From: Patescibacteria group bacterium
GTDB lineage: Bacteria; Patescibacteriota; Minisyncoccia; Phycocordibacterales; Phycocordibacteraceae
DNA length: 64,000 nucleotides
NCBI GenBank assembly: GCA_019752595.1
Contig: JAIELV010000001.1
Coordinates: forward strand, 248,486 to 312,485
Direction: 5' to 3'
Made by a program: the position numbers and the translations under genes. Position 1 is the stretch's first letter. Every line of letters begins with the position of its first letter. This document shows positions 3,124 through 27,234 of the stretch, piece after piece. The notes below the pieces were generated by a model. The model was not told the origin of the DNA, searched no databases, and saw nothing but the letters and a program-made list of their open reading frames with translations.

Positions 3124-3126
3124 AAT

Positions 3127-3155
3127 TTGACATTGGTTACTTATTAATGTAGAAA
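3127..3155 (+). promoter_or_regulatory. Possible sigma70-like promoter (TTGACA, 17-nt spacer, TAGAAA) for the downstream small gene
   Basis: A perfect -35 hexamer TTGACA sits at 3127-3132. A weak -10-like TAGAAA lies 17 nt downstream, about 30 nt before the ATG at 3187. Confidence 0.3.
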
Positions 3156-3186
3156 GTGGTATTACAGGTTTTTTGATTGCATAACT

Positions 3187-3609
3187 ATGTTTAGAGACGG
3201 ACGAAATATTTTGCTTGCAGGATTAGTAGCAACAGGAGCTGCGTGCACGGAGGCGCCTCGCCAAACTGGTGATCGCATCCTACGCATGGATATCGAATCA
3301 GCATGCAAACCAGGCCAAGAAGAAATTGACGGTCGTATGATTGCTGACGAACTTCGGCCTGTCCGAGAGTTTGGATACAGAATTCCTGGCGGATACGGTT
3401 TTGACAGTGAATTGGTACAGGGTTTTGCTGATTCATATCGAGACTGTACTCCAGGTGATTTTGATGTGGCTTCAACAATACTGCACGAAGAGAGCGACGG
3501 AGTTGAATATGTAGACCATGTGCTCTTGTACAACGTGAGAAATGCCGTTAGTGTTGGCCTTGGAAGACCGTATCGTGAAATTAACCTTGGCGAAAGCCGA
3601 GAAGATTAG
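3187..3609 (+). CDS. hypothetical small secreted or lipoprotein-like protein (140 aa)
   Basis: The ORF has a hydrophobic N-terminus (LLAGLVATGAAC) and is followed by a strong terminator. I recognise no family. Confidence 0.45.
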   Translation: MFRDGRNILLAGLVATGAACTEAPRQTGDRILRMDIESACKPGQEEIDGRMIADELRPVREFGYRIPGGYGFDSELVQGFADSYRDCTPGDFDVASTILHEESDGVEYVDHVLLYNVRNAVSVGLGRPYREINLGESRED

Positions 3610-3614
3610 ACAGC

Positions 3615-3641
3615 AAAAACGCCCTTTCTGGGGCGTTTTTT
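3615..3641 (+). terminator. Rho-independent terminator (ACGCCC / GGGCGT stem followed by a T-run)
   Basis: Sequence aaaaacgccctttctggggcgttttttg sits directly after the stop codon at 3609. Confidence 0.65.
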
Positions 3642-3710
3642 GTATTTAACTTTTAACGTATTTGGGTGTAGGCTAGTCTCAATAAATCATTAGGCGCAAA
3701 GACTGTTGCC

Positions 3711-4097
3711 ATGAACACTCACGAAAGCATCGAAAGAAAAAAGAAGAGGCACTTCGGCGCTACGGTATTTTTGACAGCTTTTCTTTCGGCGTGCGTGCCA
3801 CAACCATCTACCCCAACCCCTTCTGAGGCGGGCACGACAAACACCTCGCGAGGAGGTGTACCAGGAAGTGTCGCTGAACTTCAGGCACGCTATGAGGCAG
3901 CTGCAGCGGCCGAAGAGTTATACATTCAATGTATGGAGCGTTACTTCCCTACGTATCGTGCTGATGTAGAGACATACGGTTCCGTGTTTACTGGCGACCC
4001 TTTGGACGACACACCACACCCCTCAGTGGAAGGATGCCGCGCAGAAAGAGATGCACGGAATACTGCTGCGCGCACTATTGGACTTCCACCGATATAG
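3711..4097 (+). CDS. hypothetical lipoprotein or secreted protein (128 aa)
   Basis: Signal peptide with a lipobox-like LSAC, followed by a Thr/Pro-rich linker. I recognise no family. Confidence 0.5.
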   Translation: MNTHESIERKKKRHFGATVFLTAFLSACVPQPSTPTPSEAGTTNTSRGGVPGSVAELQARYEAAAAAEELYIQCMERYFPTYRADVETYGSVFTGDPLDDTPHPSVEGCRAERDARNTAARTIGLPPI

Positions 4098-4363: not shown

Positions 4364-5734
<1,371 letters not shown>

Positions 5735-5756
5735 TTATGTATATATACCTTATTAA

Positions 5757-6677
5757 TTATTTTGCCGCCATGGCCTCAATGCCGCCGACAATCTCCGAAA
5801 CCTCCCTAGTAATCATCGCCTGTCGCGCCTTATTAAAGGTACGGGTCAGTGCTTTCGAGAGGTCACGTGATTTATCAGATGCATTCTTCATGGCAATCAT
5901 ACGAGCAGAATGTTCAGATGCTTTTGACTCGAGAAGTGAGTGGTAAAAAAGAACCCCCACAAGGCTCGATATCAAATCATTGACCACTGCTTCTGGTGAC
6001 GGTTCAACGGTATAAAAAACTGGCGCAGGACGCGTTGTTGCAGGTGCTGGTACCTTTCCTTTCTCAGGTGTGATTCCCTTTACAACAGCGCTCAGTGTCT
6101 CAAGAGAGAGTGGTAGAACCGTATGAGCGATTGCACTCTGCTCAAAGGTCGAGCGAAAGTTGGTGTAGATAATATCAACGCGATCGTAATCTTTTTCTGC
6201 AAACGCACGCGCGATGTCGTTTGAAACCTTCGAAAGATCACCTACGACGATATCGTCTGAAACGTTCTCAAAACGTTCAACAATGGTGTAACCACGACGT
6301 TCAAAAAACTCCGCACCTTTTCTGCCAAACGCGTAGATTGAAATCATCTCTGTCGGCAACCCAGAAGCTTGCACGCGCAGATATGCTTCTCGAATTACTG
6401 CTGCATTCAAAATACCGCAGAGGCCCTTGTCCGAGGTCACCACAACAAATGCCGCTTTTTTTACTTCTCTGCTCTCAGTAAGCGGGTGACGGACTGTTGA
6501 AAGAGAAACACTCATACGTTCAAGGATAGAAAGCGCAGAATTTGCATACGGACGAGCCGTAATGGCACGCACCTGCGACTTACGCATTTTGACTGCGGAA
6601 ACCGCTTCCATTGCCTTCGTCACCTTTCGGGTACGATCAACAGACTTTATTTTGTTTTTAATATCTTTGAGCGCCAT
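5757..6677 (-). CDS. atpG: F1 ATP synthase gamma subunit
   Basis: N-terminus MALKDIKNKIKSVDRTRKVTKAMEAVSAVKMRK and C-terminal helix ITREVSEIVGGIEA are gamma-like. Confidence 0.9.
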   Translation of the reverse strand: MALKDIKNKIKSVDRTRKVTKAMEAVSAVKMRKSQVRAITARPYANSALSILERMSVSLSTVRHPLTESREVKKAAFVVVTSDKGLCGILNAAVIREAYLRVQASGLPTEMISIYAFGRKGAEFFERRGYTIVERFENVSDDIVVGDLSKVSNDIARAFAEKDYDRVDIIYTNFRSTFEQSAIAHTVLPLSLETLSAVVKGITPEKGKVPAPATTRPAPVFYTVEPSPEAVVNDLISSLVGVLFYHSLLESKASEHSARMIAMKNASDKSRDLSKALTRTFNKARQAMITREVSEIVGGIEAMAAK

Positions 6678-6738
6678 TGTTTTGTTATGAGCGAAGCGAA
6701 TTAGAAAACATTAAGTACTCGTAGGGGTGCGTCATGTG

Positions 6739-8289
6739 TTATCCGAGGGACGATACGAAAGATTGAATAGCTGACTTCAAATCGGCTTCAGTCTTTTCTG
6801 AAATCGCTTTTTCAGTTTTTATTGCTTCAAGAACACCCTTAGCTTCACGATCTAAAAACGCAAGGAATTTTTCTTCTACATCGCTAATTTTTTCAGCTGA
6901 ATATGCGTCAAAGAAACCGTTTGTGACAGCGTATATGGCAACTACTTGTCGTTCAAAAGGAGCTGGGGCATTCTTTTTCTGATTCAACAACGCGGATAGT
7001 CGTCGTCCACCGTCAATGCGCTTCTTGGTGTCTGCATCCAAGTCCTGTGAGAACTGCATGAACGCTTCAAGTTCCCTGAACTGTGCGAGATCAAGTTTGA
7101 TGCGGCCCGACACTTTCTTCATTGCCTTTGTCTGAGCAGCTGAACCCACACGCGACACAGAGATACCAACGTTAATTGCAGGGCGCGTACCTTTGTTGAA
7201 CAAATCAGCTTCTAGAAAGAGTTGTCCGTCCGTAATTGAAATAACGTTCGTCGGAATGTAGGCGGATACGTCGCCGTCCTGCGTTTCAATAATCGGAAGC
7301 GCGGTAATAGAACCGCCACCCTTTTCTTTGGAGAGTTTCGCAGCGCGCTCCAGAAGGCGTGAGTGAAGGTAGAAAATGTCTCCTGGATACGCTTCTCGGC
7401 CTGGCGGACGACGAAGAAGGAGTGAGAGCTGACGATATGCAACGGCTTGCTTGGAGAGATCATCGTAAATAATCAATACATCTTTCCCTTTCTCCATGAA
7501 GTACTCTGCGATAGATACACCTCCGAACGGTGCCAAGAATTGGAATGCCGCAGGAGCGGATGCAGGGGCAGAAACGATAATTGAATATTCCATAGCGCCG
7601 CGTTCCTGGAGAAGTGTAGCGATGCGCGCGGTTTTTGACTCTTTCTGACCGATAGCGACGTAAATACAAATTGGTCTATTTTCTTTTGACTCATTCAGCT
7701 GGTTCAAAATTGCATCAATCGCCACAGTGGTCTTTCCTGTACCTCGGTCACCGATGATGAGTTCGCGCTGTCCACGTCCCAAAGGGTTCAAAGAGTCAAT
7801 TGCTTTAGTACCTGTATGCATCGGGGTATTCACCGGCGCTCTATCCATCACGCCGTATGCCACGCGTTCAATTGGCATGGTTTTGTCGGTCTTAATGGCG
7901 CCCTTGCCGTCAATTGGTTCGCCGATTGAGTCTACGATTCTACCGACGATTGCATCCCCTACTGGAATTGAAAGGAGGCGCTTCGTGCGCTTCACGAGCA
8001 TACCCTCGGTAATACGTGAAGAGTCGCCCAAGACAATTGCTTTTACGGAATCTTCTTCAAGGTTCAAAATCACGCCGTAGAGCGCACCGTCTTTTGAAAT
8101 TGCCGACTTTACGTCCGCCGTGCTTGATTCATCAAATGAAATCATCTCCGCCATCATGGCGCCCTCGAGTCCTTCGATTTCAACAATCCCGTCGCCCACC
8201 GTGCGTACGACACCAACTTCAGTCGCCTCCTTTGAATCGGAGAACGATTCTATTTCTTTCTTCAGTCTTTCAATGATTGATGCGTCCAT
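6739..8289 (-). CDS. atpA: F1 ATP synthase alpha subunit
   Basis: Walker A GDRGTGKT plus alpha-type N- and C-terminal domains. Confidence 0.97.
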   Translation of the reverse strand: MDASIIERLKKEIESFSDSKEATEVGVVRTVGDGIVEIEGLEGAMMAEMISFDESSTADVKSAISKDGALYGVILNLEEDSVKAIVLGDSSRITEGMLVKRTKRLLSIPVGDAIVGRIVDSIGEPIDGKGAIKTDKTMPIERVAYGVMDRAPVNTPMHTGTKAIDSLNPLGRGQRELIIGDRGTGKTTVAIDAILNQLNESKENRPICIYVAIGQKESKTARIATLLQERGAMEYSIIVSAPASAPAAFQFLAPFGGVSIAEYFMEKGKDVLIIYDDLSKQAVAYRQLSLLLRRPPGREAYPGDIFYLHSRLLERAAKLSKEKGGGSITALPIIETQDGDVSAYIPTNVISITDGQLFLEADLFNKGTRPAINVGISVSRVGSAAQTKAMKKVSGRIKLDLAQFRELEAFMQFSQDLDADTKKRIDGGRRLSALLNQKKNAPAPFERQVVAIYAVTNGFFDAYSAEKISDVEEKFLAFLDREAKGVLEAIKTEKAISEKTEADLKSAIQSFVSSLG

Positions 8290-8303
8290 ACTATTTTTTA
8301 TTA

Positions 8304-8681
8304 TTAAAAACGGGCGATGCTTCGGTAGAGGGATACCAAAGCGCTTCTAAAACTGTTATCGATTAACTTTCCCTTTGCACGAACTGTGTATCCACCCACC
8401 ATACGCTCATCCTCGATAACCACATGATGTGTGTCAGCTGAGAGAGACTTGAGGGCAGCGGAAATGCCTGCCTTATATTTATCAGTGTCGTTCTTCTTGG
8501 CTACCGTTACTGTCGTTATTCCTTTTTTTGAAGCGCGCGCAGTGAGTCTGAGAACTTGCGAGAGCAGCGAGAGATGGCCTTTCGCTTTCATGTACTTCAA
8601 GAGCTTCTCTGCAAACGGCTTACCGAGGTTATTCTCCTCAGCCTCCCGAATGACCGCAGCGTACGCGTGAGAAAAGGACAT
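8304..8681 (-). CDS. atpH: F1 ATP synthase delta (OSCP) subunit, unusually short (125 aa)
   Basis: It sits between atpF and atpA with OSCP-like helical sequence. The usual delta subunit is about 180 aa, so this one is short. Confidence 0.6.
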   Translation of the reverse strand: MSFSHAYAAVIREAEENNLGKPFAEKLLKYMKAKGHLSLLSQVLRLTARASKKGITTVTVAKKNDTDKYKAGISAALKSLSADTHHVVIEDERMVGGYTVRAKGKLIDNSFRSALVSLYRSIARF

Positions 8682-8684
8682 ATA

Positions 8685-9128
8685 TTATTTTGCGGAGAGA
8701 ATCTTCTCTGCGGCAAGAATCGCAGCGCGCGCGATTCCTTTTTCGCTCTCCTTCAGTGCTTTGCGTGAGAGTTCTGCAGCCTGAAGTTCCGCGTCCTTAA
8801 GGAGTGCTTCCGACTGTGCCTGTGCACGCTCCACTATCTTTGCGCGCTCTTCTTTACCAACCTCTACGGATTTCTGCACTCTGTCTTCCGCTTCACGCTC
8901 AGCAGCCGCAAGCACTTCTTTGCGCTGCTTTTCCGCTTCAAGAGCGTTTGATGAAGCTTGCTCAGCATCGCGAACCCCTTTCTCAATCAGTTCTTGTCGT
9001 TCCTTAAGAATTTTCAGAACTGGCTTGTAGAGGAAGAACGTCAAACCAGCAACCAAAAGGCCGAAGTTGACGGACTGCGCGAGGAGCAGTTTTCCGTTGA
9101 TGCCGAATGCTTCTATCAGTGCGTCCAT
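8685..9128 (-). CDS. atpF: Fo ATP synthase subunit b
   Basis: Single N-terminal TM helix followed by a long charged coiled coil. Position in the operon fits. Confidence 0.8.
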   Translation of the reverse strand: MDALIEAFGINGKLLLAQSVNFGLLVAGLTFFLYKPVLKILKERQELIEKGVRDAEQASSNALEAEKQRKEVLAAAEREAEDRVQKSVEVGKEERAKIVERAQAQSEALLKDAELQAAELSRKALKESEKGIARAAILAAEKILSAK

Positions 9129-9150
9129 GCGGTTTCGAAAATAAAATTAT

Positions 9151-9384
<234 letters not shown>

Positions 9385-9406
9385 TTATTATGACTAATGT
9401 TTATAA

Positions 9407-10177
9407 CTAAGCGTGTGCCTCAGCATGTTCTTCACCGTGCGGCTCGGTAACCGAGAGCTTGATGAAAAACAGGGTGAGCAAAGAAAAAATAGCCGCCTGG
9501 ATGAACGCCACGAATACCTCAAAGAAGAGGAACGGGAGCGGCAACAAATATGCCGCAAAGAACATCAAGACGACTATAAGCAAGTGCCCCGCAAGAATGT
9601 TACCGAACAATCGGAACGACAACGAAACAAGTCGGGCCAGGTTGCCTATGATTTCAAGGATGCCGACGAAAAAGTTCATCGGCGAGCTAAAATTAACAAA
9701 TTTTGAGGCGTACTTCAAGAAACCAAGGTGTACTATCCCCGCTATTTCGATAACCAAGAACGAAATAATGGCGAGCGCAAGTGGGGTGTTTAGATCGGCG
9801 TTGACTGGATAGAAGAGGGGCATGAAGTGACCTTCGTGATCGACAAAGCCTACCGACTCCATAATCGGCAAGAAACCGACAAGATTCATGAAAAGAACAA
9901 ATACGAAGATAGAGGCAATCAAGGGGAAATACCGTTCTGCAAGCTTTACGTCCTCAAGAGCGTTTTTCATGTAATCCATAACGCCTGCGACGAACGATTC
10001 CACTACTACCTGCCCTTTTCCAGGCACCAATTTGAGGTTCCTACCTATGAAAAAGGCGGCGGCGAGTATAAGAATAGTGGTAATCCAGCTCGTGAGGATT
10101 GAGGGGGTCAGTGGAAACCCGCCAATGTCGGCAATGTGTTCAGGAGCTAACGCAATATGAAGACCTTCTGCGGCCAT
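9407..10177 (-). CDS. atpB: Fo ATP synthase subunit a
   Basis: 5 to 6 TM helices with a conserved Arg in the penultimate helix (NLARLVSLSFRLFGN). It is the first gene of the operon. Confidence 0.9.
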   Translation of the reverse strand: MAAEGLHIALAPEHIADIGGFPLTPSILTSWITTILILAAAFFIGRNLKLVPGKGQVVVESFVAGVMDYMKNALEDVKLAERYFPLIASIFVFVLFMNLVGFLPIMESVGFVDHEGHFMPLFYPVNADLNTPLALAIISFLVIEIAGIVHLGFLKYASKFVNFSSPMNFFVGILEIIGNLARLVSLSFRLFGNILAGHLLIVVLMFFAAYLLPLPFLFFEVFVAFIQAAIFSLLTLFFIKLSVTEPHGEEHAEAHA

Positions 10178-15040: not shown

Positions 15041-15111
15041 CGGGGCGTAGTATACCGGTAGTACATACGCTTCGGGTGCGTAGAGACCGAGTTCGATTCT
15101 CGGCGCCCCGA
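15041..15111 (+). tRNA. tRNA-Pro (anticodon CGG)
   Basis: Cloverleaf: acceptor CGGGGCG/CGCCCCG, anticodon stem TACGC/GCGTA, loop TTCGGGT (U33, G37), T-arm CCGAG-TTCGATT-CTCGG, discriminator A, no encoded CCA. Confidence 0.75.
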
Positions 15112-15231
15112 CTAAGGACTCCGCGAGAAATTCGGTTCGTAAAGTTCTTAGACAGATTTCGGGCCGTAAGTAAACTTTCGGCCCGTTCACTCGGACGGCA
15201 TGAAAATAAATTTTCGCGCCGCTCCTCGTTC

Positions 15232-15302
15232 CGGGCCGTAGTATACCGGTAGTACGCATGCATGGGGTGCATGTAGATCGGGTTCGATTCCCGACGGCCC
15301 GA
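15232..15302 (+). tRNA. tRNA-Pro (anticodon GGG)
   Basis: Acceptor CGGGCCG/CGGCCCG, anticodon loop ATGGGGT, T-loop TTCGATT. It is a paralog of the first tRNA-Pro and shares its D-arm. Confidence 0.75.
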
Positions 15303-15316
15303 CCCAGACGTCATTC

Positions 15317-15388
15317 GCTCTCATAGCTCAATGGATAGAGTGTATCCCTCCGAAGGATGAGATGCAGGTTCGATTCCTGCTGAGAGCA
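15317..15388 (+). tRNA. tRNA-Arg (anticodon CCG)
   Basis: Acceptor GCTCTCA/TGAGAGC, D-arm TAGCTCAATGGATAGAGT, anticodon loop CTCCGAA, T-arm GCAGG-TTCGATT-CCTGC. Confidence 0.8.
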
Positions 15389-15451
15389 CAAAACTGCTTT
15401 TGTGCGTGCAGAAATCGAAAGGGTTTGCGATGTTGAGTCCGCGAAACAGCA

Positions 15452-15543: not shown

Positions 15544-16257
15544 TCAGTCAGTGTTATCTTCAAGTATTAGGAGCGCCTTTTTACGCGTATCGCGGTTGAT
15601 GTCGTTATCTTCCGTATTTTTTTGTTTCTCGAGCGATGCTATGTATTCCTGCGGAAGTCCGTTCTGCTTAGCGCCTTTTATAATGAGAGCGAGATACCAG
15701 TCATAGGGAAGCAAGTCCTTCTTCTTTTCCTTCGTGAAATAGGTAACGACCCGTTCTTTGTGTTGTTTTGAGGGCATCCAGATCCAAATATGTTCCGACT
15801 CATAACCAGCACCTTCCGCTCTATCGAGTAAGACCCTTTCAGACTCATTAACTTCAAACACAGTTCCATAGGTGTGAGAGTGCCCTCTTTTTTCTATTGC
15901 TGCTTTCCCTGAGCCGTCTTTGCTCAGTTTTGTAAAAACTAGCAGATAGTTTTCTGCCATGCCTAGACCAACGGACCTGGCGCTCGGACACTTGTCTCGT
16001 AGCCATTTAGTGCACATGTTTGAACCATAAGCGAAATACAAAAAGGTTTGTTTTGGTTCTTGCTCTAATTTCAACTTGTCGGCAATATAAACTGCCAAAA
16101 ACATGGAGCCCAAAAACAAAAGCGCACCCAACCTGAGCCACGAAGGACCTGGATTGGTGAAATATTCAAATATAAAAATCAGAGTAACAAACAGTGCGAG
16201 AGCAAGAACTGTCGTTCTGAAATTATTCATCGTCCGTATACTATAAACCCGTAACAA
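15544..16257 (-). CDS. membrane-anchored gamma-glutamyl cyclotransferase-like (AIG2/GGCT family) protein
   Basis: Two N-terminal TM helices, then the GGCT signature YFAYGSNM. Confidence 0.6.
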   Translation of the reverse strand: MLRVYSIRTMNNFRTTVLALALFVTLIFIFEYFTNPGPSWLRLGALLFLGSMFLAVYIADKLKLEQEPKQTFLYFAYGSNMCTKWLRDKCPSARSVGLGMAENYLLVFTKLSKDGSGKAAIEKRGHSHTYGTVFEVNESERVLLDRAEGAGYESEHIWIWMPSKQHKERVVTYFTKEKKKDLLPYDWYLALIIKGAKQNGLPQEYIASLEKQKNTEDNDINRDTRKKALLILEDNTD

Positions 16258-16320: not shown

Positions 16321-16965
16321 CTATTCCCGCACCATTGTCACTAAGTGTTCTTCAGGATGAGAGGCATCGGGGCGGGGGGGAAAACCTAATTTTTGCGCGA
16401 GACCAATTGAACCTTCATTTTTGCTATTGAAAATCGCCCATAGTTTCGCATCAGGATAGGCTTTCAAATACGTATCAATACAAAACTGTACGAACCCACG
16501 CATATGACCTTTTCCGCGGAATGGATTGTAACTACGATATGAAATAGTATGCCAATTTTCTGCATCAATTTTTTTTCCCGCCTCGCGTTCTTCATCAGAC
16601 AAATATTTCATTGATTTTTGCCCCAAGGGTTTTGGTCCAAACCAACAAATAGCGGTTACTGAGTCCGATTCTTCGTGAATAAGTGCAAACGGCGTTCTGC
16701 CTTTTGAGTACCATTCTTCGTATGAACCTTCGCCAAATCGTTTTTTGTCAGACGTGTTTTCTTGCAAGTCAGCATCATTTTCATCAAGTGAATAATGCTT
16801 CACCTGCTCTGCCATGTGACGATCAAGCCCTGCAACCACTACAAAACGTTCTCCCGATTTTGACTGCGCATCGGCAATAGGCACGCTTTCAAAAAGAGCG
16901 AGCGGAAACTGCAATGTTCCTTCAAATGAATACGGGTATACATCCATATCGTCTGATGTCGTCAT
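16321..16965 (-). CDS. GNAT-family N-acetyltransferase (putative)
   Basis: Acetyl-CoA-binding motif A FRGKGHMRGFV and motif B GSIGLAQKLGF. It overlaps the aclA stop by 4 bp. Confidence 0.55.
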   Translation of the reverse strand: MTTSDDMDVYPYSFEGTLQFPLALFESVPIADAQSKSGERFVVVAGLDRHMAEQVKHYSLDENDADLQENTSDKKRFGEGSYEEWYSKGRTPFALIHEESDSVTAICWFGPKPLGQKSMKYLSDEEREAGKKIDAENWHTISYRSYNPFRGKGHMRGFVQFCIDTYLKAYPDAKLWAIFNSKNEGSIGLAQKLGFPPRPDASHPEEHLVTMVRE

Positions 16966-18764
16966 ACTATTCTACTATGCGAAGACGTGTCAGTTTCATG
17001 CAGGAGTTCGTCAGGAAGACGGAATAGCCCTTCGTCATTTTTCTTTTGTTCTAAGAAATGCGCCACAAAACCAACGCTTCGAGGCAGTATGAAAAAGGCA
17101 TTGAAAAATTCCGCGCGTACCAGGGTTTGAAGCTCGGCATTCGTAAGACCTTCTTTTTCCGAAAGTATGTCAAGAAAAAGTGCAGAAATGGCACCGTCAA
17201 TATTGAGTATCAGTGTCCCTTTTTTCCTTACCGTTATTTTTTCAATCGATTGTGCAAAATCAGAGTGAGGGTGCTTTTTGAGTACGTTCTTAAATTCCAT
17301 CAATGCAAGAACTCGGGGGTCTGGAATCCCAAGACGATATTTCTTATGACCGATGCCTGGAATCGGTTCTCGGCGCTTCCCCCACTCAGATACAAAATCG
17401 GCTGAAGATATATTTCGACTCACCCCCGAAAGCCACGCACCCGCCGCTGCGTTCACCGCACCACCGAAGCGCGAACCGATAGTCAAAAGGCCAGCTGAAA
17501 GCGAGGTTGCCATATCTCTTCCCGCGCGCGCGGTAATCATAGTGTTTACAGCGCCTGAGACGTGCCCTCCATGATCAATGAGTAACCGAAACACCGCATC
17601 GGTATATGCAACCGTCACGTTACTTTTGGGCGGTCTTCCAAGAAGTGCCTCAAGTAATGCGGGTACAAAAAGAGTGCCCCCGTGCGAAGTGATTTTTTTA
17701 CCAGAAACAAGTTTGGGTAATGCGCCGATTCCTGTTATTTTCCTAGTCGTTAGTATCGTCTTTTGGCGGCTCGTGCTCATCTCCTTCTTCTTCATTTTAC
17801 CATTCCCCCGCGGTACCGAAAGTTCGTCGATTGCCTTCAAAAACCCTGAGAATGTATCTGGTGCATGGACGCCTGCATCCCTCAAGGCACTGCGTTTCGC
17901 CCGCGCGCTTTCATCATTTTTACGCACCAGGGCTTTTGCGTGCCCAAACTGTACATGCTCTTCAAAAGCTTCATCTATAACCCCCGCTATGTACGCAACA
18001 AGCGGTTTGGTAAAGCGTTTTTCTTCAATAAGGGTAATAATTTCATATTCGTCGTCACCCCCAAGTTCGCCAAAATAGACTACTGCGTCTGTGTTTGGAT
18101 CTGATTCAGCGAGCGTAAAAGCATCTGTCAGCGAGAAAACGGGGAAACGATCACCGCCAACACACGCAGCGAACGATACACGGCGTCCTGAATCACTGAC
18201 TGCATGTATAAGTTCGTTTGTCATACCACCTGAAGTGGAGCACACGGCAATACTGCCTTTTTCTGTAATGTGAGAACGGTGTATCTGCTCGAGACTGACA
18301 CCCCCTATTGCCCCAAGTTTTAGGAAACCTGAAACCAGAAAACCGACACCAGACGGACCAAATATAGAATATGTTTTTAAAAATCGTTGTAGTAATTTCG
18401 TGGCGTGCACTTCAGGAACATTCTCTGCAAAAATGTGTGCACCAAGGGCGTGTGGTACCTGTTCAAAAAAGTGTGTTACTGAATCACATGCCCGTCTACC
18501 TGATTCTAGCGAGAGGAACCATGCGATATCCAAACGAAGTGAGGCGGGGATAGATTCAATAGATGAAAAACATGGAATAAGAACTTCGGAGGGACCAAAA
18601 AATAATTTGTATGCTGTTCTCGTGCCCGTCACAATTGCACGAATCGAGGGTCGTTTTTTCCCTGCCAGATAATCAAAATCTACTATTGATTGCAAGATCG
18701 GCTCGTGAATTCCACCGACCACTATTCCGTCCTGCCCGCGTCTGAGTTTTTGTAGTATGTTCAT
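16962..18764 (-). CDS. aclA: ATP-citrate lyase large subunit (CoA-binding/phosphohistidine domain fused to a citrate-synthase-like domain)
   Basis: [28 protein letters not shown] matches the ACLY phosphohistidine loop [66 protein letters not shown] and [18 protein letters not shown] match the ACLY citryl-CoA lyase domain. Confidence 0.85.
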   Translation of the reverse strand: [600 protein letters not shown]

Positions 18765-19918
18765 ACAGTTACATACGCGATTGCCTTCTCCACTGCGTCG
18801 GTAATACGTGCAGCACTGCCTGAAATAGAACCAAGAATACGGTGGTGCTTGAGAAACTGTTTCATCTGCAGAAGCCCTTCCGCTTCGCGGGGCCCACCAC
18901 GGCGGACGAATACTTTGACATTTGCTTTTGCAAGGTCACTCGCTCGCTCCGTAAGTGCATCAATAATGCCAGAGAAGGTAGTACTCACATCAGTAAAATT
19001 TGCTATCCCTCCTGCTATCACCAGTGCTCTTTTTTTACTTTTTGAGGAAAGCATGAGTCCGATAATTTCGCGTGCATACAGATACGTTTCTTCTCGTGTT
19101 GGCCCACCACTGTATTCGCCATAGTTTGCAATGAGAGAACCGGCTTTCTTACTGACTGCATGATCGCCTATGGTTATAGAACCACCCCCACCTGACAAGA
19201 GAAAAAAGAGCGAACCGTGCGGATTAAGTATAGTGAGTTTTAAAGATGCTGGTGTCGTCTTATCGAGCTCCGCCACCGTAGCTTCGCGACGATGTTTCTT
19301 TTTTGACTCTGTATAATCTGCCTCCGACCACGCTCCGTGTACTAACTGCTCTCCTGCATCATCAACGAGAAGCGCTGCATCAAGCGCCCACACCTTCGAA
19401 CCTATAACAACCAGAGGATTAATTTCCAAAAACGCCAAATGGTACGCATCGAATGCACTCAGTATCGTACGTACAAACTGTTCGGGGATGAGTGTTTTTT
19501 TTGAGACATATGCAGAGTCTTCGCTTCCTCGAATATCAAACGACTGAACCGAGGCGCTTGACTCTTCAATGTCTATCCCGCCCTTTGTAGAAAATAGAAC
19601 CCTTACTCCTGTTCGAATTCGGTCAAAAGAAAGATACTGCTCCGATTGCGGAGAATGTTCGACGTATTCTTCAACGAGGAAGCGAGTAAATCCTTTTTTA
19701 GACCACGCGCGAATATGTTTTCGAATTTCGGACGCAGGAATATTGATGACGACCAGCTTTTGCTTGAAACGTTTTTTTATACCCTGGTCAACCTTTACTA
19801 CATACCTCCCTTTTTGAGGGACAGAGAATTGTGTATCTTTCGTGACCGAAACACCTGTATACGAATCGCCCAATAACAATCGTTTTGCCCTGTACTCAGA
19901 AACTTTGACGCGCGCCAT
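18761..19918 (-). CDS. aclB: ATP-citrate lyase small subunit (ATP-grasp, SucC-like)
   Basis: LAFLEINPLVV, SLKLTILNPHGSLFFLLSGGGGSITI, ANYGEYSGGPTREETY, VIAGGIANFTDV and VFVRRGGP match the ACLY N-terminal region motif by motif. Confidence 0.85.
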   Translation of the reverse strand: MARVKVSEYRAKRLLLGDSYTGVSVTKDTQFSVPQKGRYVVKVDQGIKKRFKQKLVVINIPASEIRKHIRAWSKKGFTRFLVEEYVEHSPQSEQYLSFDRIRTGVRVLFSTKGGIDIEESSASVQSFDIRGSEDSAYVSKKTLIPEQFVRTILSAFDAYHLAFLEINPLVVIGSKVWALDAALLVDDAGEQLVHGAWSEADYTESKKKHRREATVAELDKTTPASLKLTILNPHGSLFFLLSGGGGSITIGDHAVSKKAGSLIANYGEYSGGPTREETYLYAREIIGLMLSSKSKKRALVIAGGIANFTDVSTTFSGIIDALTERASDLAKANVKVFVRRGGPREAEGLLQMKQFLKHHRILGSISGSAARITDAVEKAIAYVTV

Positions 19919-19929
19919 TTCGAGGCATT

Positions 19930-21117
19930 CTACCCTAAAGCACCGAATTTTTTACCCGCAACAGAAAATGCGAGCACTGCCTTCTGTATGTCCTCTTTTG
20001 TGTGCGCTGCTGAAATTTGCACTCTGATACGTGCCTTGCCCTTAGGAACAACGGGGAAACTGAAGCCAATAACGTATATACCCTCTCCCATGAGTTCCTT
20101 GGCCATATCAGCTGCTAGGCGGTCCTCAGGGAGCATAATTGGTGTAATTGGATGTTCTGCGTCAGATACGCTAAAACCTGCTTTTTTCATCTCTTCACGG
20201 AAGAATTTTGTATTCTCCCAGAGTTGCTCACGTATCTCGGGGTGTTTCTGAATATGTTCTAAAACGAACAATGAAACCCCTGCAATTCCTGTATCAAGTG
20301 CGTTTGAGAAAAGGTACGTACGGGAACGTTGACGCAGATATTCAGCAACCTCTTTTCTGGTGGCAGTAAACGCACCACCTGCGCCACCGAGAGCCTTGCC
20401 ATAAGTACCCGTAATGAAATCAACGCGACCCATAACTCCTGCATGTTCATGTGTTCCTCTTCCAGTTTTTCCCATCACCCCCGTTGCGTGCGCGTCATCC
20501 ACAAACACCAAAGCGTTATATTGATCTGCTAAATCGCAAATTTCTTTGAGTGGGGCTACATGTCCATCCATTGAAAATACTCCGTCGGTTACGATAACTT
20601 TCAAACGCTTTCCCGTGACTGTTTTTAATTTTTCTTCCAAATCTGCCATGTCCATGTGCTTATAAATCAATCGTTCGGACTTTGTCAGGCGAATGGCATC
20701 GATAATCGAGGCGTGGTTTAACTCATCGGTAATTATTGCGTCTTCATCAGTAAAAAACGTCTGAAACAGGCCGACGTTTGCCATGAAGCAAGAAGAATAC
20801 AGAACTGCATCTTCTGTCCCTAAAAATTCTGCAGTCTTTTTCTCAAGCTCTTTATGTATTGTTTGAGTCCCGCAAATAAAACGCACAGACGCCAGTCCGA
20901 ACCCCCACCTTTTTATTGCAGCGTCTGATGCTAACCCTAACTCTTCTGTGCCCGAGAGGCCTAAATAATTGTTCGCACAAAAGTTGAGAAGTTTTTTACC
21001 ATCGACGACAATCTCCCTCCCCTGGGGAGAATCAATAACCCGCTCTTCTTTCCAAATCCCAGCATCACGAATTGCCTTGAGCTCTTTCTCTAAAATCGGT
21101 TTCAATGCGTCGTACAT
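19930..21117 (-). CDS. kbl: 2-amino-3-ketobutyrate CoA ligase (glycine C-acetyltransferase)
   Basis: Class II PLP aminotransferase of the AONS/KBL subfamily (NNYLGLSG, SMDGHVAPL with the PLP lysine context). Adjacent to tdh. Confidence 0.85.
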   Translation of the reverse strand: MYDALKPILEKELKAIRDAGIWKEERVIDSPQGREIVVDGKKLLNFCANNYLGLSGTEELGLASDAAIKRWGFGLASVRFICGTQTIHKELEKKTAEFLGTEDAVLYSSCFMANVGLFQTFFTDEDAIITDELNHASIIDAIRLTKSERLIYKHMDMADLEEKLKTVTGKRLKVIVTDGVFSMDGHVAPLKEICDLADQYNALVFVDDAHATGVMGKTGRGTHEHAGVMGRVDFITGTYGKALGGAGGAFTATRKEVAEYLRQRSRTYLFSNALDTGIAGVSLFVLEHIQKHPEIREQLWENTKFFREEMKKAGFSVSDAEHPITPIMLPEDRLAADMAKELMGEGIYVIGFSFPVVPKGKARIRVQISAAHTKEDIQKAVLAFSVAGKKFGALG

Positions 21118-21119
21118 GG

Positions 21120-22313
21120 TTATCCGTTTATTTTGAAGAGGATCTTGGGATTTTCACTCATCGCCTTTTCAAAACTCTCAGGAGTAAAAGACTTAAAATC
21201 AAGAATTGTCGCTCTGCCCTCTTTAAGAATCGTTTTCCAAATAGCATCTTGTATACCGTTTGTTTTATCTTGTAAGACGCGCTGAGCAATCTGCCAGGTA
21301 CGAAAAATCTGACGTCCGATGATGTTGTGAATCGTTAATCCTCGAACCACAACTCTAGAGAATTTAGGAATTACCAAATCGCCGTCCTTAATGCCGAAGA
21401 AGATAACATTCCCCCCTCTTCTGGTTGCATCTATGCAGTTGTTAACGGAGGAAAACGGGCCTGCCATTTCCATTGAAACGTCCACACCCTTACCATACGT
21501 AAGTTCCATAATCCGTGAAATTACTTCAGGATCGGAATCCCACTCATTCGTCTTTTCTTTCTTTTGAATTTGAATAGTTTCGTGTGCGCCCAACTCTTTG
21601 GCAATGCGTAGATTTTCTGGATTCACGTCAACGGCTATCACTTTCGCAGCACCAAAGTTTCGCGCCAAAAGAACAGAAAAAAGTCCCACGGGCCCACAGC
21701 CGAATACGGCGACACGCTGACCGCGCAAATCAACCGCGGTAGCTGAATGAACGGCATTCCCGAACGGATCGTAAATTGCTGCAATTTCAGGACGAACGCG
21801 AGTTGTGTCCACTGGCCACAAATTCTTTGCTGGCACTTTCACATATTCAGCAAAAATACCGTCGATAGAAATGCCGAGGATTGCTTCGTTCAAGCACACC
21901 TCTCCTTCGCCTAACCGACACTGGTAACAACGCCCGCAGGTGATATGGGAATCGCCAGATACCACGCTCCCTACTTCTACTTTCGCTTTATTTTGTGGGT
22001 CAGGATCGTGATACAACCGATGAACCATCGAGCCGACTTGGATTATCTCTCCAACAAATTCGTGGCCTGTGATGCGCACTTTCTTACCCTCTTTTGCGAG
22101 AGAGTCATGCACCATGTCTTTAAATGCTGTTCGATGCCACAATCCGCGATCTGAGCCACACACTCCTGCGTATTTGATTTTGAGTATGACTGAAAGCGCA
22201 TCTTCGGGATTTTTCGTCTCATCCAAAACAGGCATTGGCACTTCTTCCATCTGAAAACCCTTCTTCTCCCAACCGTTCTCAAGGTTAAGCGTCAGTGCTT
22301 TGACGGTATTCAT
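21120..22313 (-). CDS. tdh: L-threonine 3-dehydrogenase (Zn-dependent MDR family)
   Basis: Zn-ADH motifs GVCGSDRGLWH and GHEFVGEI, plus the Rossmann fold VAVFGCGPVGL. It sits directly upstream of kbl. Confidence 0.85.
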   Translation of the reverse strand: MNTVKALTLNLENGWEKKGFQMEEVPMPVLDETKNPEDALSVILKIKYAGVCGSDRGLWHRTAFKDMVHDSLAKEGKKVRITGHEFVGEIIQVGSMVHRLYHDPDPQNKAKVEVGSVVSGDSHITCGRCYQCRLGEGEVCLNEAILGISIDGIFAEYVKVPAKNLWPVDTTRVRPEIAAIYDPFGNAVHSATAVDLRGQRVAVFGCGPVGLFSVLLARNFGAAKVIAVDVNPENLRIAKELGAHETIQIQKKEKTNEWDSDPEVISRIMELTYGKGVDVSMEMAGPFSSVNNCIDATRRGGNVIFFGIKDGDLVIPKFSRVVVRGLTIHNIIGRQIFRTWQIAQRVLQDKTNGIQDAIWKTILKEGRATILDFKSFTPESFEKAMSENPKILFKING

Positions 22314-22395
22314 TGCTCTATTCTATACCAGAGCGAGAGAGAAAAGTAACAAAACCCCGCCTTGCTGGCGAAACATCACTCCGCCCGTCCACAAA

Positions 22396-22421
22396 GCAAA
22401 AAACCTGTCGCAGGACAGGTG
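22396..22421 (-). terminator. Rho-independent terminator downstream of tRNA-Ala
   Basis: On the minus strand: ACCTGTC-CTGC-GACAGGT hairpin followed by TTTTTT. Confidence 0.5.
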
Positions 22422-22433
22422 TTTTGGTCTTTG

Positions 22434-22506
22434 TGGACCCTATCGGATTCGAACCGATGACCTCCTCATTGCAAATGAGGCGCTCTACCAACTAAGCTAA
22501 GGGCCC
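22434..22506 (-). tRNA. tRNA-Ala (anticodon UGC), with the G3:U70 identity pair
   Basis: Reverse complement gives a 73-nt cloverleaf: acceptor GGGCCCT/AGGGTCC with G3:U70, anticodon loop TTTGCAA, T-loop TTCGAAT. Confidence 0.85.
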
Positions 22507-25203: not shown

Positions 25204-26622
25204 TTATATTTCTTCGAACGTTGGCAATATTTTGATAGTAGCGGAGCGAGTGACAGGTAAACCTCCAAGATCGGTACATGAAAGCCTATACGTTACTTCG
25301 CTGTTGATAGCGCTCGTTGTCTTTGTTCCTGACGCTCCCGAAAGTGTCCATGAATCACCGTTTCCTGAAAGTGTGCACGAACCCGCCTGCACATCGACAA
25401 CGCTCCAGGTAAGAACCGTGGTCGTTCCTGGACGCACTGAGCGCGCAGTAGGCACAAGTGTCAGTTGTGCGTCAGCCGATGATTCGCTGTCATCAGCAAG
25501 AGAGCTACACTGCGGATCAAAACCTGCTCCAATGCCATAATCTTCAAAAGTATCACCGTCGTTGTCGATGCCGTCTTCGCACTCTTTCGGATTGTACTCA
25601 TCATTGTCAGAAGAGCTGGTGCATCCGCGATCGCCAGGAGGAACGGGATAATCGAGCTTGCCGTCACCGTCGTTGTCGATGCCGTCTTCACATTGTGCTG
25701 GATTTGCTTCGCTAGTATCGGCAAGCGATACACAACCAGAATCGTTGTTGACACCAAAACCAAAGTCTATTTTTGTATCTCCGTCATTGTCATTCCCATC
25801 AGAACATGCGGGATTTGCAGGATCGGTTTCATTATCGTCGGATGCGTTAATACAACCTGGGTCGGGATTACCACCACCAAAGTCTACTTTCCCGTCTCCG
25901 TCGTTGTCGACACTGTCTGCACATTGCGCAACGGTAGATGTTGTCTCGGAATCGTCCTGCGCGTTTATACAACCTGGATCTCCTCCAGAAAAATCAGTTA
26001 GACCGTCGCTGTCGTTGTCGATGCCGTCCGCGCATTGCGCAGGTGTTTCTCGACAGGCAACGCCAGAGCCAACAACGCCGTACGTAGGACCCTTGAACGA
26101 AAGCCAGCCGACAGTAGAGGTGTCAGCATCTGAACCGCCTCCCCATGCGTATCCTTCCCACGAACATCCAACCGCTTTTACCTGGTGCCCAGTTCCTGCA
26201 AGATGGAGCCACCCGCCCCACCCACCGATTTCTTGCGATGCTCCAGCACCCGCAATCGCGCGTGCCCATCCAGATGCTAAACCTGTTGTTTTATTAAAAC
26301 GCGCTTCGCATGGAGAGGTAGGGCAACCCGCAAGATCTGCAGAATTAAAAGATACCCAGCCAGCGTTTGAAGACCATGCGTAGCCTGACATTAAGCCACT
26401 CGTGTCAACTTTTACTCCGTAGTTTGTGGAGGCGCACGATCCTGCGGTGGTGCAGTTCATCGAAACCCACCCAATTGTTGAAGACCAGCCGTATCCTGAG
26501 AGATTATCTGTTGATGCTGCACGCACCATATGCACCGCGCCCCACACCGAAACAGCGAACAACGCGAAAAGAAAAAGTCCGAGGAGAAAACGGCCACGTG
26601 CTATTTGAAAAATATTTTGCAT
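25204..26622 (-). CDS. secreted repeat protein: N-terminal G(Y/W)AWSxxxGW(V/L)SF repeats followed by at least six Cys/Asp-rich C-x-DG-x-DND-x-DG calcium-binding-like repeats
   Basis: Signal peptide, then repeats such as CADGIDNDSDG, CADSVDNDGDGKVD, CSDGNDNDGDTKID, CEDGIDNDGDGKLD and CEDGIDNDGDTFED. These resemble thrombospondin-type-3 or MopE-like metal-binding motifs. The coding DNA shows matching tandem periodicity. Confidence 0.6.
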   Translation of the reverse strand: MQNIFQIARGRFLLGLFLFALFAVSVWGAVHMVRAASTDNLSGYGWSSTIGWVSMNCTTAGSCASTNYGVKVDTSGLMSGYAWSSNAGWVSFNSADLAGCPTSPCEARFNKTTGLASGWARAIAGAGASQEIGGWGGWLHLAGTGHQVKAVGCSWEGYAWGGGSDADTSTVGWLSFKGPTYGVVGSGVACRETPAQCADGIDNDSDGLTDFSGGDPGCINAQDDSETTSTVAQCADSVDNDGDGKVDFGGGNPDPGCINASDDNETDPANPACSDGNDNDGDTKIDFGFGVNNDSGCVSLADTSEANPAQCEDGIDNDGDGKLDYPVPPGDRGCTSSSDNDEYNPKECEDGIDNDGDTFEDYGIGAGFDPQCSSLADDSESSADAQLTLVPTARSVRPGTTTVLTWSVVDVQAGSCTLSGNGDSWTLSGASGTKTTSAINSEVTYRLSCTDLGGLPVTRSATIKILPTFEEI

Positions 26623-26631
26623 ATACCTGAT

Positions 26632-27234
26632 TTATTGCATTAAAACGCTGCCACCATACCCTGATTCGTAGGCTCCTTCGTACCCTGCTTGATAATTCCC
26701 TTGAGAATAGGCAGGGGCAAAAGGACTTGTTCTCCATATTGTTCCTGGAGAAACGACAACAGAACCTGTGCATGAAAGTCTGGAATAGGTACAGTATTTC
26801 CAACCCGCACAGTCAGCGCTCGAGACCCACGAGCAGTGTGCCCAACTCATAGGAATCCACCCTGCGCTTATTTCTGCTGCTGAAAGAACACATCCGACGC
26901 CAACAGGAGTTCTATCCCCAGGATCTTGATTCTGTTTCACCATGATGTTCAAGGAGCATGTTGCAGGTTGTGCAATCCACGACCACTCAGTAATACAACT
27001 CTCACCAATACAAAAACCGTCTGTTGCTCCTATCGCGTCGGCCCAAAAACTGCCTTTCTTCTCTTGGTACGTGAGACTCGAATCAATAAGTGCTGGTGGA
27101 TTCCCTCCAGGAGGAAGCGCGAGAGAGTTTGAATAGTTTGCAGCGAACGCCGAGGTACCCAAAACCAAAAGGCTCAAAAAAACAGTGAGTGTGTTTCTCA
27201 GAATGCTTCCAGTTTTTTGTGAAGTCTGTTGCAT
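26632..27234 (-). CDS. secreted Cys-rich protein, paralog 1 of a tandem triplet
   Basis: Sec signal peptide with an AFA|AN cleavage site. Shared blocks: FWADAIGATDGFCIGESCI, GVGC, AGW, SW-HC-WVS-DC, YC-Y-LSCTGSV. C-terminal Gly/Tyr-rich tail. Confidence 0.55.
   Translation of the reverse strand: MQQTSQKTGSILRNTLTVFLSLLVLGTSAFAANYSNSLALPPGGNPPALIDSSLTYQEKKGSFWADAIGATDGFCIGESCITEWSWIAQPATCSLNIMVKQNQDPGDRTPVGVGCVLSAAEISAGWIPMSWAHCSWVSSADCAGWKYCTYSRLSCTGSVVVSPGTIWRTSPFAPAYSQGNYQAGYEGAYESGYGGSVLMQ

Follow-up and report, generated by a model that had tools for sequence, protein, structure and literature searches.

A threonine catabolic pair, a two-subunit ATP-citrate lyase and a GNAT acetyltransferase in one gene cluster of a Patescibacteria bacterium: a possible modular unit of acetyl-CoA supply

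ATP-citrate lyase (ACL) is known as a single chain, human ACLY, and as the two-subunit AclAB of Chlorobium limicola (6HXJ) and Methanothrix/Methanosaeta concilii (6HXI), and it is routinely taken as a marker gene for carbon fixation by the reductive TCA (rTCA) cycle in metagenome surveys (e.g. PMC12930757). The enzyme works near equilibrium, and for Desulfobacter postgatei an ATP-forming direction has been reported (Moller et al. 1987, cited in PMC8085960), with ACL making citrate and ATP from acetyl-CoA and oxaloacetate within an oxidative citric acid cycle. Two other described systems bear on the locus considered here: the kbl-tdh operon of Escherichia coli, which turns threonine into glycine and acetyl-CoA, and the acetyltransferases Pat, PatZ and AcuA, which are GNATs encoded beside an acetyl-CoA-forming enzyme and acting upon it. 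The acquisition and use of acetyl-CoA are an open point in reconstructions of the minimal metabolism of the CPR/Patescibacteria, a phylum generally without the TCA cycle and often without PFOR or PDH.

The locus lies in a window of 64 kb read out of an 831-kb genome. An earlier reading of this window (the sequence-only reading) had expected a reduced-genome organism, which agrees with the host being a CPR (Patescibacteria) bacterium. It had also described five close-packed minus-strand genes, and the ORFs are exactly there, at 22313-16321, in the order tdh, kbl, aclB, aclA, GNAT; domain, family and structure matches bear out the five names, with Tdh scoring below its family cut-off. tdh and kbl are separated by 2 nt and kbl and aclB by 11 nt, and aclB overlaps aclA by 4 nt. 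The 4-nt overlap of aclA with the GNAT gene is valid only with the first GNAT ATG as the start; relatives start at the equivalent of M7, which lies at 16947 in the window, may be the true start and gives a short gap with no overlap.

On its 5' side the unit is clearly delimited by a tRNA-Ala(UGC) gene (22433..22506, minus strand, identified by ARAGORN), located between an upstream pterin-4a-carbinolamine dehydratase gene and the operon, and by two terminator-like hairpins followed by T-runs (22354..22420, minus strand) 3' of this tRNA and 5' of tdh; the hairpins come from nothing more than a consensus scan, in which the region had no more such sites than shuffled sequences. A TAGAAT -10-like box (22320..22325, minus strand), 6 nt before the tdh ATG, probably serves as the promoter of a transcript with little or no leader; the pattern TANAAT occurs at -20..-9 of 9 of the 72 window genes, with 0.6 expected. 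A second TAGAAT -10-like box (19927..19932, minus strand), 8 nt ahead of the aclB ATG and overlapping the stop codon of kbl, is kept in the relatives L082 and L084 and might possibly serve as an internal promoter for aclB-aclA, and a third is found near the GNAT start (16969-16974). The five-gene operon probably has sub-promoters before tdh, aclB and GNAT. The next gene, 63 nt downstream of GNAT, encodes an AIG2/GGACT-like protein that has a hydrophobic segment at its N-terminus (15544..16257, minus strand; PF13772, PF06094) and may be co-transcribed with the operon; in relatives it is not kept beside the operon, and other genes occupy its position. Adjacency of genes says less in very compact genomes than in large ones.

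The product of aclB (18761..19918, minus strand), the beta subunit, carries the citrate-binding domain PF16114 Citrate_bind (171 bits) and the ATP-citrate synthase ATP-grasp domain, with PF24948 at 95 bits, and scores 182 bits against the N-terminal part of human ACLY and 49 bits against the CCS large subunit. It has kept the citrate loop IANFT, the motif RRGG, the G-rich loop GGGG and the residues of the ATP-grasp domain, and its K42, K48, R50, E93, E165, N167 and D180 align with human ACLY residues. In the alpha subunit, encoded by aclA (16962..18764, minus strand), a CoA-binding and phosphohistidine domain (Ligase_CoA) is fused to a C-terminal citryl-CoA lyase domain of the citrate-synthase type (PF00285, 63 bits). 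It scores 294 bits against human ACLY, 289 against the M. concilii and 217 against the C. limicola protein, compared with at most 82 for SCS alpha, 74 for CCL, 66 for the CCS small subunit and 21 for AcCoA-syn alpha; the comparison with SCS and CCS, which the sequence-only reading had proposed, thus came out on the side of ACL for both subunits. The phosphohistidine loop QFGHAKA (H275), named in that reading, is present and, like E114, invariant in 23 relatives. E114, H275, H398 and H473 correspond to human E599, H760, H900 and H975, and R484, D523, R562 and R582 to R986, D1026, R1065 and R1085, so that the catalytic His (H275) and the citryl-CoA-lyase residues (H398, H473, D523, R484, R562, R582) are in place; the position of human R976 is taken by Lys in the window protein and by Arg in most relatives. 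Judged by their sequences, AclA and AclB are genuine ACL subunits, with all the catalytic and citrate-binding residues checked being conserved. Identity as SCS, CCS/CCL or an ADP-forming acyl-CoA synthetase was rejected, given scores far below those for ACL and the presence of PF16114 and a fused lyase domain.

The glycine C-acetyltransferase Kbl (19930..21117, minus strand) passes the equivalog cut-offs of NF005394 (581 bits, cut-off 460) and TIGR01822 (569 bits, cut-off 493), and homologues 73-94% identical to it are widespread in Kaiserbacteria and other Paceibacteria. The 397-aa Zn-dependent L-threonine 3-dehydrogenase Tdh (21120..22313, minus strand), assigned from its best families and structures, motifs and kbl adjacency, is a CPR variant with insertions and a C-terminal extension. 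Its best NCBIfam matches are L-threonine 3-dehydrogenases, but they reach 254 and 240 bits where 380 and 458 are required, and its five best PDB matches are all Tdh (140-170 bits, with the next family at 94). It carries the Zn-ligand motifs CGSD, GHE and CGRCYQC...C, and orthologues 73-92% identical adjoin kbl in relatives.

The acetyltransferase (16321..16965, minus strand) belongs to a Paceibacteria-restricted family of about 205 aa, designated G4, and consists of a single GNAT domain in 214 aa. Its fold is that of a GNAT, and it has motif A, which binds the pyrophosphate of acetyl-CoA (R/Q-x-x-G-x-G/A), as well as invariant motifs (SLDE.D.ELQENTSDRKRFGEGSYEEWY, WFGPKPLGRKS and WHT..YRSY.PFRGKG). 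The GNAT domain of Pat is its best structural neighbour, RimJ/RimL-type N-terminal acetyltransferases score just as well, and NCBIfam gave no match and no equivalog; the protein resembles protein acetyltransferases, with a fold closest to protein N-acetyltransferases. Membership in the Pat/AcuA type was rejected, as there is no family match and only one domain, the likeness to Pat being structural only.

ACL proved to be widespread in Patescibacteria, with at least 236 species genomes carrying it, and its rarity in a reduced genome, implied by the sequence-only reading, was overstated; enrichment of ACL in some CPR has been mentioned in passing (PMC12577380). The same reading had proposed an AclA phylogeny as a test for horizontal acquisition; ACL is common and apparently vertically inherited in the phylum, its genes lie among housekeeping genes and match the host in base composition, and the CPR sequences form their own clade, with 35-38% identity to the nearest non-CPR representatives. 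aclB and aclA are adjacent in all of 80 species-level genomes, and more than 70 of these 80 ACL loci have no tdh/kbl nearby. The conserved partner of ACL is a GNAT, not Tdh/Kbl: of 53 Paceibacteria-type loci, 51 have a GNAT next to aclBA, for the most part 3-60 nt upstream. This GNAT belongs to G4 or to G3, a small GNAT unrelated to G4, and the interleaving of G3 and G4 on the AclA tree suggests that the two are equivalent in function.

G4 occurs in three layouts. The first is GNAT-aclB-aclA; the second, tdh-kbl followed directly by G4 without ACL, was found in five loci with differing genomic surroundings (L085, L086, L087, L090, L091); the third, the fused five-gene form, is shared by the window and three relatives (L081, L082, L084), in which pairwise identities are congruent over all five genes, the four AclA are monophyletic, and the order is kept down to 62-69% AclA identity. 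ACL has been repeatedly and cleanly lost in close relatives. It is missing at the otherwise syntenic position in L085 and L086, which have the closest Tdh/Kbl (92% identity), and in L087, and is therefore probably dispensable where another source exists; on the contig with P0307 (IleRS-RecO-GNAT-[no aclBA]-GlyRS...) the GNAT stays with no tdh/kbl adjacent. The linkage of tdh/kbl with aclBA arose twice independently, in the window clade and in Levybacteria L078, a member of a different class, where a tdh-x-kbl-aclB-aclA operon with 4-nt overlaps has Tdh and Kbl of another lineage (29% and 41% identity to the window proteins) and no adjoining GNAT.

The locus may well be a modular acetyl-CoA supply unit, with two interchangeable sources arranged around one acetyl-CoA-using GNAT. 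Tdh and Kbl would convert threonine to glycine, acetyl-CoA and NADH, and AclAB would cleave citrate with ATP and CoA to acetyl-CoA and oxaloacetate, threonine and citrate presumably coming from the host or its surroundings. The two sources would then be redundant, and the GNAT would either spend acetyl-CoA on an acceptor or sense it and acetylate the producing enzymes as feedback. The five-gene operon would be a fusion of two older three-gene modules, GNAT-aclB-aclA and tdh-kbl-GNAT, through the GNAT they share. An acetyl-CoA hub feeding the co-transcribed GNAT had been one proposal of the sequence-only reading, and comparative genomics supports it, with G4 as the constant partner of aclBA or tdh-kbl. 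The feedback version, in which the GNAT would be an acetyl-CoA-sensing protein lysine acetyltransferase that turns off the co-encoded ACL and/or Kbl/Tdh, by analogy with Pat or AcuA acting on acetyl-CoA synthetase, is a variant that differs only in the role of the GNAT. Its position beside two unrelated acetyl-CoA-producing systems would suit such a role; the version is nevertheless unlikely, given the absence of the large regulatory domains of Pat-type enzymes and of an NCBIfam equivalog, the equal scores of RimJ/RimL-type enzymes, no target lysine having been identified, and the persistence of the GNAT on the P0307 contig.

Both the ACL and the tdh-kbl modules are found near a UvrABC-Ddl-PCD housekeeping block in many relatives, and the genes might have become neighbours merely through compaction or rearrangement within it, with no functional coupling. 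The likely separate -10 boxes and the ease with which ACL is lost would agree with this. Against it stand the retention of the five-gene order at the AclA identities given above, the independent operon of L078 and the near-universal adjacency of the GNAT, and such a chance origin appears very unlikely.

In the modular supply unit ACL probably runs in the cleavage direction, which is favoured because citrate formation is about +9 kJ/mol uphill at 1 mM (PMC8085960). The sequence-only reading had also offered the reverse, an energy-conserving formation of citrate and ATP from threonine-derived acetyl-CoA and oxaloacetate by substrate-level phosphorylation; the citrate would then be exported. The near-equilibrium of ACL and the D. 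postgatei report would permit it, and the two independent linkages of tdh-kbl with aclBA point in its favour, as does the reported absence of Pta from Paceibacteria and Saccharimonadia (PMC9166423), because of which the usual route from acetyl-CoA to ATP looks incomplete. Apart from the energetic cost, it would depend on stoichiometric oxaloacetate and on a sink for citrate, genes for which were found neither in the window nor among conserved neighbours; the recurrent ACL neighbours include neither a citrate transporter nor an enzyme that consumes oxaloacetate (Mdh, PEPCK, transaminase). With most ACL loci having no tdh/kbl, the closest relatives retaining tdh-kbl-GNAT without ACL, and the GNAT left unexplained, the reversal is distinctly unlikely. 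A further form of the idea, in which ACL of these TCA-less and Pta-less Patescibacteria would be an ATP-yielding citrate synthase fed by threonine acetyl-CoA and host oxaloacetate, the citrate being returned to the host, we regard as very improbable; if true, these cells would have a fermentative energy module of a new kind and would exchange metabolites with their host.

Acetyl-CoA, the link common to all four enzyme genes, might also flow the other way through Kbl and Tdh. CPR are generally without amino-acid biosynthesis, and for such an auxotroph ACL, cleaving host citrate with ATP, could push acetyl-CoA into the two reversed enzymes, giving a two-step route from glycine, acetyl-CoA and NADH to threonine. 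The Kbl/Tdh pair is reportedly reversible in vitro (Marcus and Dekker 1993), and ACL, powered by ATP and placed just before the pair in the pathway, would provide the driving force. This scheme, however, has no role for the GNAT, and with tdh-kbl-GNAT occurring without ACL in five loci and ACL-GNAT modules without tdh/kbl in dozens, both the proposed push by ACL and the resulting threonine synthesis are highly unlikely. rTCA partners (2-oxoglutarate:ferredoxin oxidoreductase, fumarate reductase, PFOR, aconitase, IDH) were detected by Pfam in none of about 30 ORFs scanned, which make up part of the 64-kb window, and none of them is among the recurrent neighbours at the 80 ACL loci. The Patescibacteria species genomes with bona fide ACL and no rTCA context, at least 236 in number, would be false positives for autotrophy in surveys that use this marker. 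The recurrent pairing of acetyl-CoA-producing enzymes with a lineage-specific GNAT offers a biochemical handle, as the acceptor of the GNAT would reveal what these cells need acetyl-CoA for, and the way in which ACL and Tdh/Kbl have been gained, fused and lost around it illustrates cleanly how pathways are shuffled in streamlined genomes.

Compared with known systems, the window ACL shares domain order and subunit split with AclAB of C. limicola and M. concilii, and the 4-nt overlap of aclB and aclA is a further likeness to the two-subunit type; its scores place it nearer the human and M. concilii enzymes than that of Chlorobium, and it keeps all the catalytic and citrate-binding residues checked. 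It differs in a shorter N-terminus of AclB, in having a GNAT as conserved partner, and in a host with no sign of rTCA in the part of the genome read. CCS/CCL and SCS have homologous domains (49-66 bits for CCS, 74 for CCL and at most 82 for SCS, against 294 for ACLY), but the window lyase domain is fused and accompanied by the ACL-specific PF16114. In D. postgatei a complete cycle, coupled to sulfate reduction, removes the citrate, whereas no such sink is evident in the window host. As in E. coli, tdh and kbl are adjacent and presumably co-transcribed; their order is the reverse, Tdh is longer than the E. coli type, CPR-specific and below the NCBIfam cut-off, and downstream of the pair comes a GNAT, accompanied in this clade by ACL. 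Like Pat, PatZ and AcuA, the GNAT is encoded beside producers of acetyl-CoA, but it shows no sequence-level membership among them, is about 205 aa long and has invariant motifs of its own. The parts are already known, and what is new is their combination, with the GNAT as the constant partner and the two routes to acetyl-CoA as interchangeable add-ons.

On the minus strand of the window, five consecutive ORFs encode tdh (21120-22313), kbl (19930-21117), aclB (18761-19918), aclA (16962-18764) and a GNAT acetyltransferase (16321-16965), exactly where the sequence-only reading had placed them, with one 2-nt gap, one 11-nt gap and two 4-nt overlaps at their junctions. The unit begins at tdh, since a tRNA-Ala gene (22433-22506) and two terminator-like hairpins are located 5' of this gene; within the cluster, the frequency of terminator-like sites did not exceed that of shuffled sequence. 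An AIG2/GGACT-like gene with the gamma-glutamyl cyclotransferase fold (15544-16257, minus strand) lies 63 nt 3' of the GNAT gene, starts with TTG and encodes an N-terminal hydrophobic stretch; in relatives this slot holds different genes, e.g. peptidase M20 in contig L087. Beyond it, a plus-strand cluster of tRNA genes for Pro(CGG), Pro(GGG) and Arg(CCG) (15041-15389) is convergent with the operon and is overlapped by spurious minus-strand ORFs. Elsewhere, the window carries unannotated ORFs (25204-27234) and an F-type ATP synthase operon (4364-10177, minus strand), of which subunits a, alpha, gamma and beta were identified. It also encodes a full-length AcrB-type RND transporter (25-3123, plus strand), an unusual feature in a bacterium presumed to have no outer membrane.

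AclB contains the citrate-binding domain specific to ATP-citrate lyase (ACL) (PF16114, 171 bits) together with the ACL ATP-grasp domain. Among solved structures it matched best the N-terminal portion of human ACLY (182 bits) and the ACL of M. concilii (171 bits), against just 49 bits for the large subunit of CCS. AclA, in which a CoA-ligase domain is followed by a citrate-synthase-type domain, scored against solved structures 294 bits with human ACLY, 289 bits with M. concilii ACL and 217 bits with C. limicola AclA, compared with at most 82 bits for SCS alpha, 74 bits for citryl-CoA lyase and 66 bits for the small subunit of CCS. When the alignments were transferred to human ACLY numbering, AclA was found to keep the equivalents of E599, H760 (within QFGHAKA), H900, H975, R986, D1026, R1065 and R1085, and AclB the citrate loop I344-T348, R378/R379 and the ATP-grasp residues. 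The checked catalytic and citrate-binding positions were invariant among 23 homologues; the sole altered position checked was R976, a Lys in the window and an Arg in most relatives. An identity of AclAB as SCS, CCS/CCL or acyl-CoA synthetase is ruled out by the scores and domain content, and every sequence feature of ACL that was looked for was found. Since the residues are intact and the scores favour ACL, AclAB is, as far as sequence can tell, a genuine ATP-citrate lyase, as had been claimed from the first reading. With 581 and 569 bits, Kbl exceeded the cut-offs of both NCBIfam equivalogs. Tdh is a longer variant (397 aa) that does not reach the Tdh cut-offs; the families and the five solved structures that match it best are all L-threonine 3-dehydrogenases, and its gene adjoins kbl.

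More than 2,300 AclA homologues were scored, and the best 120 were 56-68% identical to the window protein, all named entries among them being Patescibacteria (Paceibacterota, Kaiserbacteria, Liptonbacteria). With one genome per GTDB species scanned, at least 236 genomes encode an ACL relative, a lower bound because two peptide patterns were used to find them. Of these 236, the best 80 were either Paceibacteria-type (54-63% identity) or Saccharimonadia/Levybacteria-type (47-50%). A few were titled Gammaproteobacteria or Gemmatimonadetes, and their sequences and neighbourhoods cluster with CPR loci. For these nine MAGs (L033, L051, L058, L060, L062, L065, L067, L071 and L074), the taxonomic labels are probably wrong, because the ACL genes and their surroundings go with Levybacteria, Saccharimonadia and Paceibacteria. 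Clustering at 50% gave 118 family representatives (E <= 1e-30), and the nearest clusters beyond the CPR-like set were 35-38% identical. A horizontal origin of aclBA had also been raised in the sequence-only reading. A recent acquisition is ruled out: GC and GC3 of all five genes fall inside the spread of the window, AclA identity tracks class boundaries, the flanks of aclBA are housekeeping genes syntenic between species, and the five genes diverge congruently. The distribution, the identity pattern and the GC/GC3 values indicate that ACL is an old, vertically inherited and patchy trait of Patescibacteria, with no recent import here.

The same five-gene order was found in L081, L082 and L084, contigs of the closest AclA homologues (65-68% identity); in L081, pdxS-pdxT lie upstream, and tdh and kbl are separated by an additional ORF of 185 aa. 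Pairwise identities were congruent over the five genes, with L082 and L084 the closest pair throughout and the window about equidistant from L081 and from this pair, and the four AclA sequences of the five-gene form were monophyletic in a neighbour-joining tree without support values. Because of this congruence and monophyly, the fused operon is considered to have arisen once and then to have been inherited. Kbl, strongly conserved at 73-94%, is common among Kaiserbacteria and Paceibacteria. Among contigs of its closest homologues, five (L085, L086, L087, L090 and L091) carry tdh-kbl followed by a GNAT of the window's own family (G4, ~205 aa) with ACL absent, in L090 and L091 within unrelated genomic surroundings; in the complete Kaiserbacteria genome L088 the site holds tdh and kbl only. 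In L087, tdh appears to be divided between two ORFs (8846-9999; query residues 1-124 and 145-396), either as a pseudogene or through an assembly frameshift. Tdh and Kbl of L085 and L086 are 92% identical to those of the window and the GNAT 84%. L085 is the nearest relative of the window by Tdh/Kbl, and the absence of aclBA at its site is most simply explained by loss. An ORF with a Hint/intein domain (2775-3968) lies within its syntenic block. A second clean absence was seen on the contig that carries P0307, where the order IleRS-RecO-GNAT-[nothing]-cluster 2-GlyRS-AI-2E-MetRS-TatD corresponds to the common Paceibacteria ACL neighbourhood without aclBA. No deletion scar was seen at the kbl/GNAT junction of the ACL-less relatives. 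In the Levybacteria locus L078, a Tdh of canonical length and an enzyme of the BioF/Kbl subfamily (29% and 41% identical to the window proteins) are linked to aclB-aclA through 4-nt overlaps; by sequence, the threonine pair and ACL came together here independently. Uncharacterised ORFs of 185-202 aa between tdh and kbl, absent from the window, occur in both the Paceibacteria contig L081 (3292-3849) and L078 (6980-7588); they had no Pfam or NCBIfam match and were weakly similar to each other (23% over 129 aa, pairwise E 2e-4).

The hexamer TAGAAT occurs on the minus strand 6 nt ahead of the tdh ATG (22320-22325), 8 nt ahead of that of aclB (19927-19932, overlapping the stop codon of kbl), and 3 nt ahead of the annotated GNAT ATG (16969-16974); translation of the GNAT may in fact begin at M7, as it does in relatives without ACL. 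TANAAT, often TAGAAT, was present at this start-proximal position in 9 of 72 window genes against 0.6 expected, 3-8 nt before the start codon, or ~12 nt upstream for ddl (start 23878). At the corresponding position many other window genes have the near-variants TATACT, TACACT or TAGACT, and few Shine-Dalgarno-like sequences are present. TANAAT is probably a promoter of leaderless or short-leader mRNAs, and these observations together suggest that such mRNAs are widespread in this genome. Since TAGAAT precedes tdh, aclB and GNAT, transcription of the cluster is likely to be modular (tdh-kbl, then aclB-aclA, then GNAT, with read-through), which matches its evolutionary assembly.

Neighbourhoods were compared in the 80 best loci, using ORFs from a simple caller of our own, BLASTP clustering and tblastn for homologues of window genes. 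aclB and aclA adjoin in all loci not interrupted by a contig end. Tdh/Kbl was next to aclBA in a single locus (L078), and a GNAT in 51 of 53 Paceibacteria-type and 5 of 22 more distant-type loci, mostly 3-60 nt upstream of aclB on the same strand. The GNAT slot is filled either by G4 or by G3 (Acetyltransf_1, 142-155 aa), which have no more than the GNAT core in common (hhalign, 52 aligned columns) and are interleaved on the AclA neighbour-joining tree, a rough one carrying no support values. The nearest structures to G4 were protein acetyltransferases (the Pat GNAT domain with acetyl-CoA synthetase; RimJ, RimL, NAT9; PatZ, Rv0998), with a small lead over other GNATs, and the best single-sequence PDB match of G3 was 3fb3/3i3g. 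Recurrent neighbours, most identified by eye from cluster representatives and some backed by precomputed Pfam matches, belong to housekeeping or cell-wall functions: aminoacyl-tRNA synthetases, UvrABC, Ddl, MurB, MltG, Prs, PdxST, RecO, EF-G/Tu and ribosomal proteins. GlmS and a YvcK/CofD-like gene precede GNAT-aclBA in L003, L026 and L033. GlmS lies downstream of aclBA in L064, L068 and L075, and MurB, Ddl and MltG recur close by. It is possible that ACL-derived acetyl-CoA is linked to amino-sugar or cell-wall synthesis, the likeness of G3 to GNA1 being weak and non-specific. A GNA1-like role (GlcN-6-P N-acetyltransferase) was rejected as an explanation and retained as no more than a lead, as the profile search placed generic small GNATs level with or above GNA1 for G3, and G4 has no GNA1 resemblance.

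Acetyl-CoA is common to Tdh/Kbl and ACL, and the genes of both recur beside one for an acetyl-CoA-dependent transferase. Most economically, Tdh/Kbl and ACL would be alternative suppliers of acetyl-CoA, the former using threonine and the latter citrate and ATP, in cells without a TCA cycle, with the GNAT as a putative user or sensor of the pool. Routes to and from acetyl-CoA are often unclear in published reconstructions, and Pta was reported absent in the classes Paceibacteria and Saccharimonadia (PMC9166423). This absence would suit an ACL yielding ATP in the citrate-forming direction, for which a precedent in Desulfobacter postgatei is cited in PMC8085960. Such a reversal seems unlikely here: citrate formation with ATP gain costs +9 kJ/mol at 1 mM (PMC8085960), many ACL-GNAT modules lack threonine genes, and no citrate sink was visible in the 8% of the genome that was inspected. 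Among the recurrent neighbours of the 80 loci there was likewise no Mdh, PEPCK, transaminase, other TCA or oxaloacetate-using enzyme, or citrate carrier. On these thermodynamic and genomic grounds, ACL probably works in the direction of cleavage. It is also possible that Kbl and Tdh run in reverse, driven by ACL, for threonine synthesis, a reading that leaves the ACL-less and the Tdh/Kbl-less modules unexplained.

All four enzyme types are already known, and aclAB in CPR has appeared in an enrichment statistic (PMC12577380) and in the trees of one preprint. The literature searched contained only passing mentions with no explanation of the role of ACL in CPR, and no description of the partnership of aclBA with a GNAT. 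Compared with these records, three things are new: ACL is widespread in Patescibacteria independently of the rTCA cycle, it is paired almost obligately with a GNAT, and in one clade aclBA is fused with tdh-kbl. ACL used as the sole marker of the rTCA cycle will mislabel these organisms.
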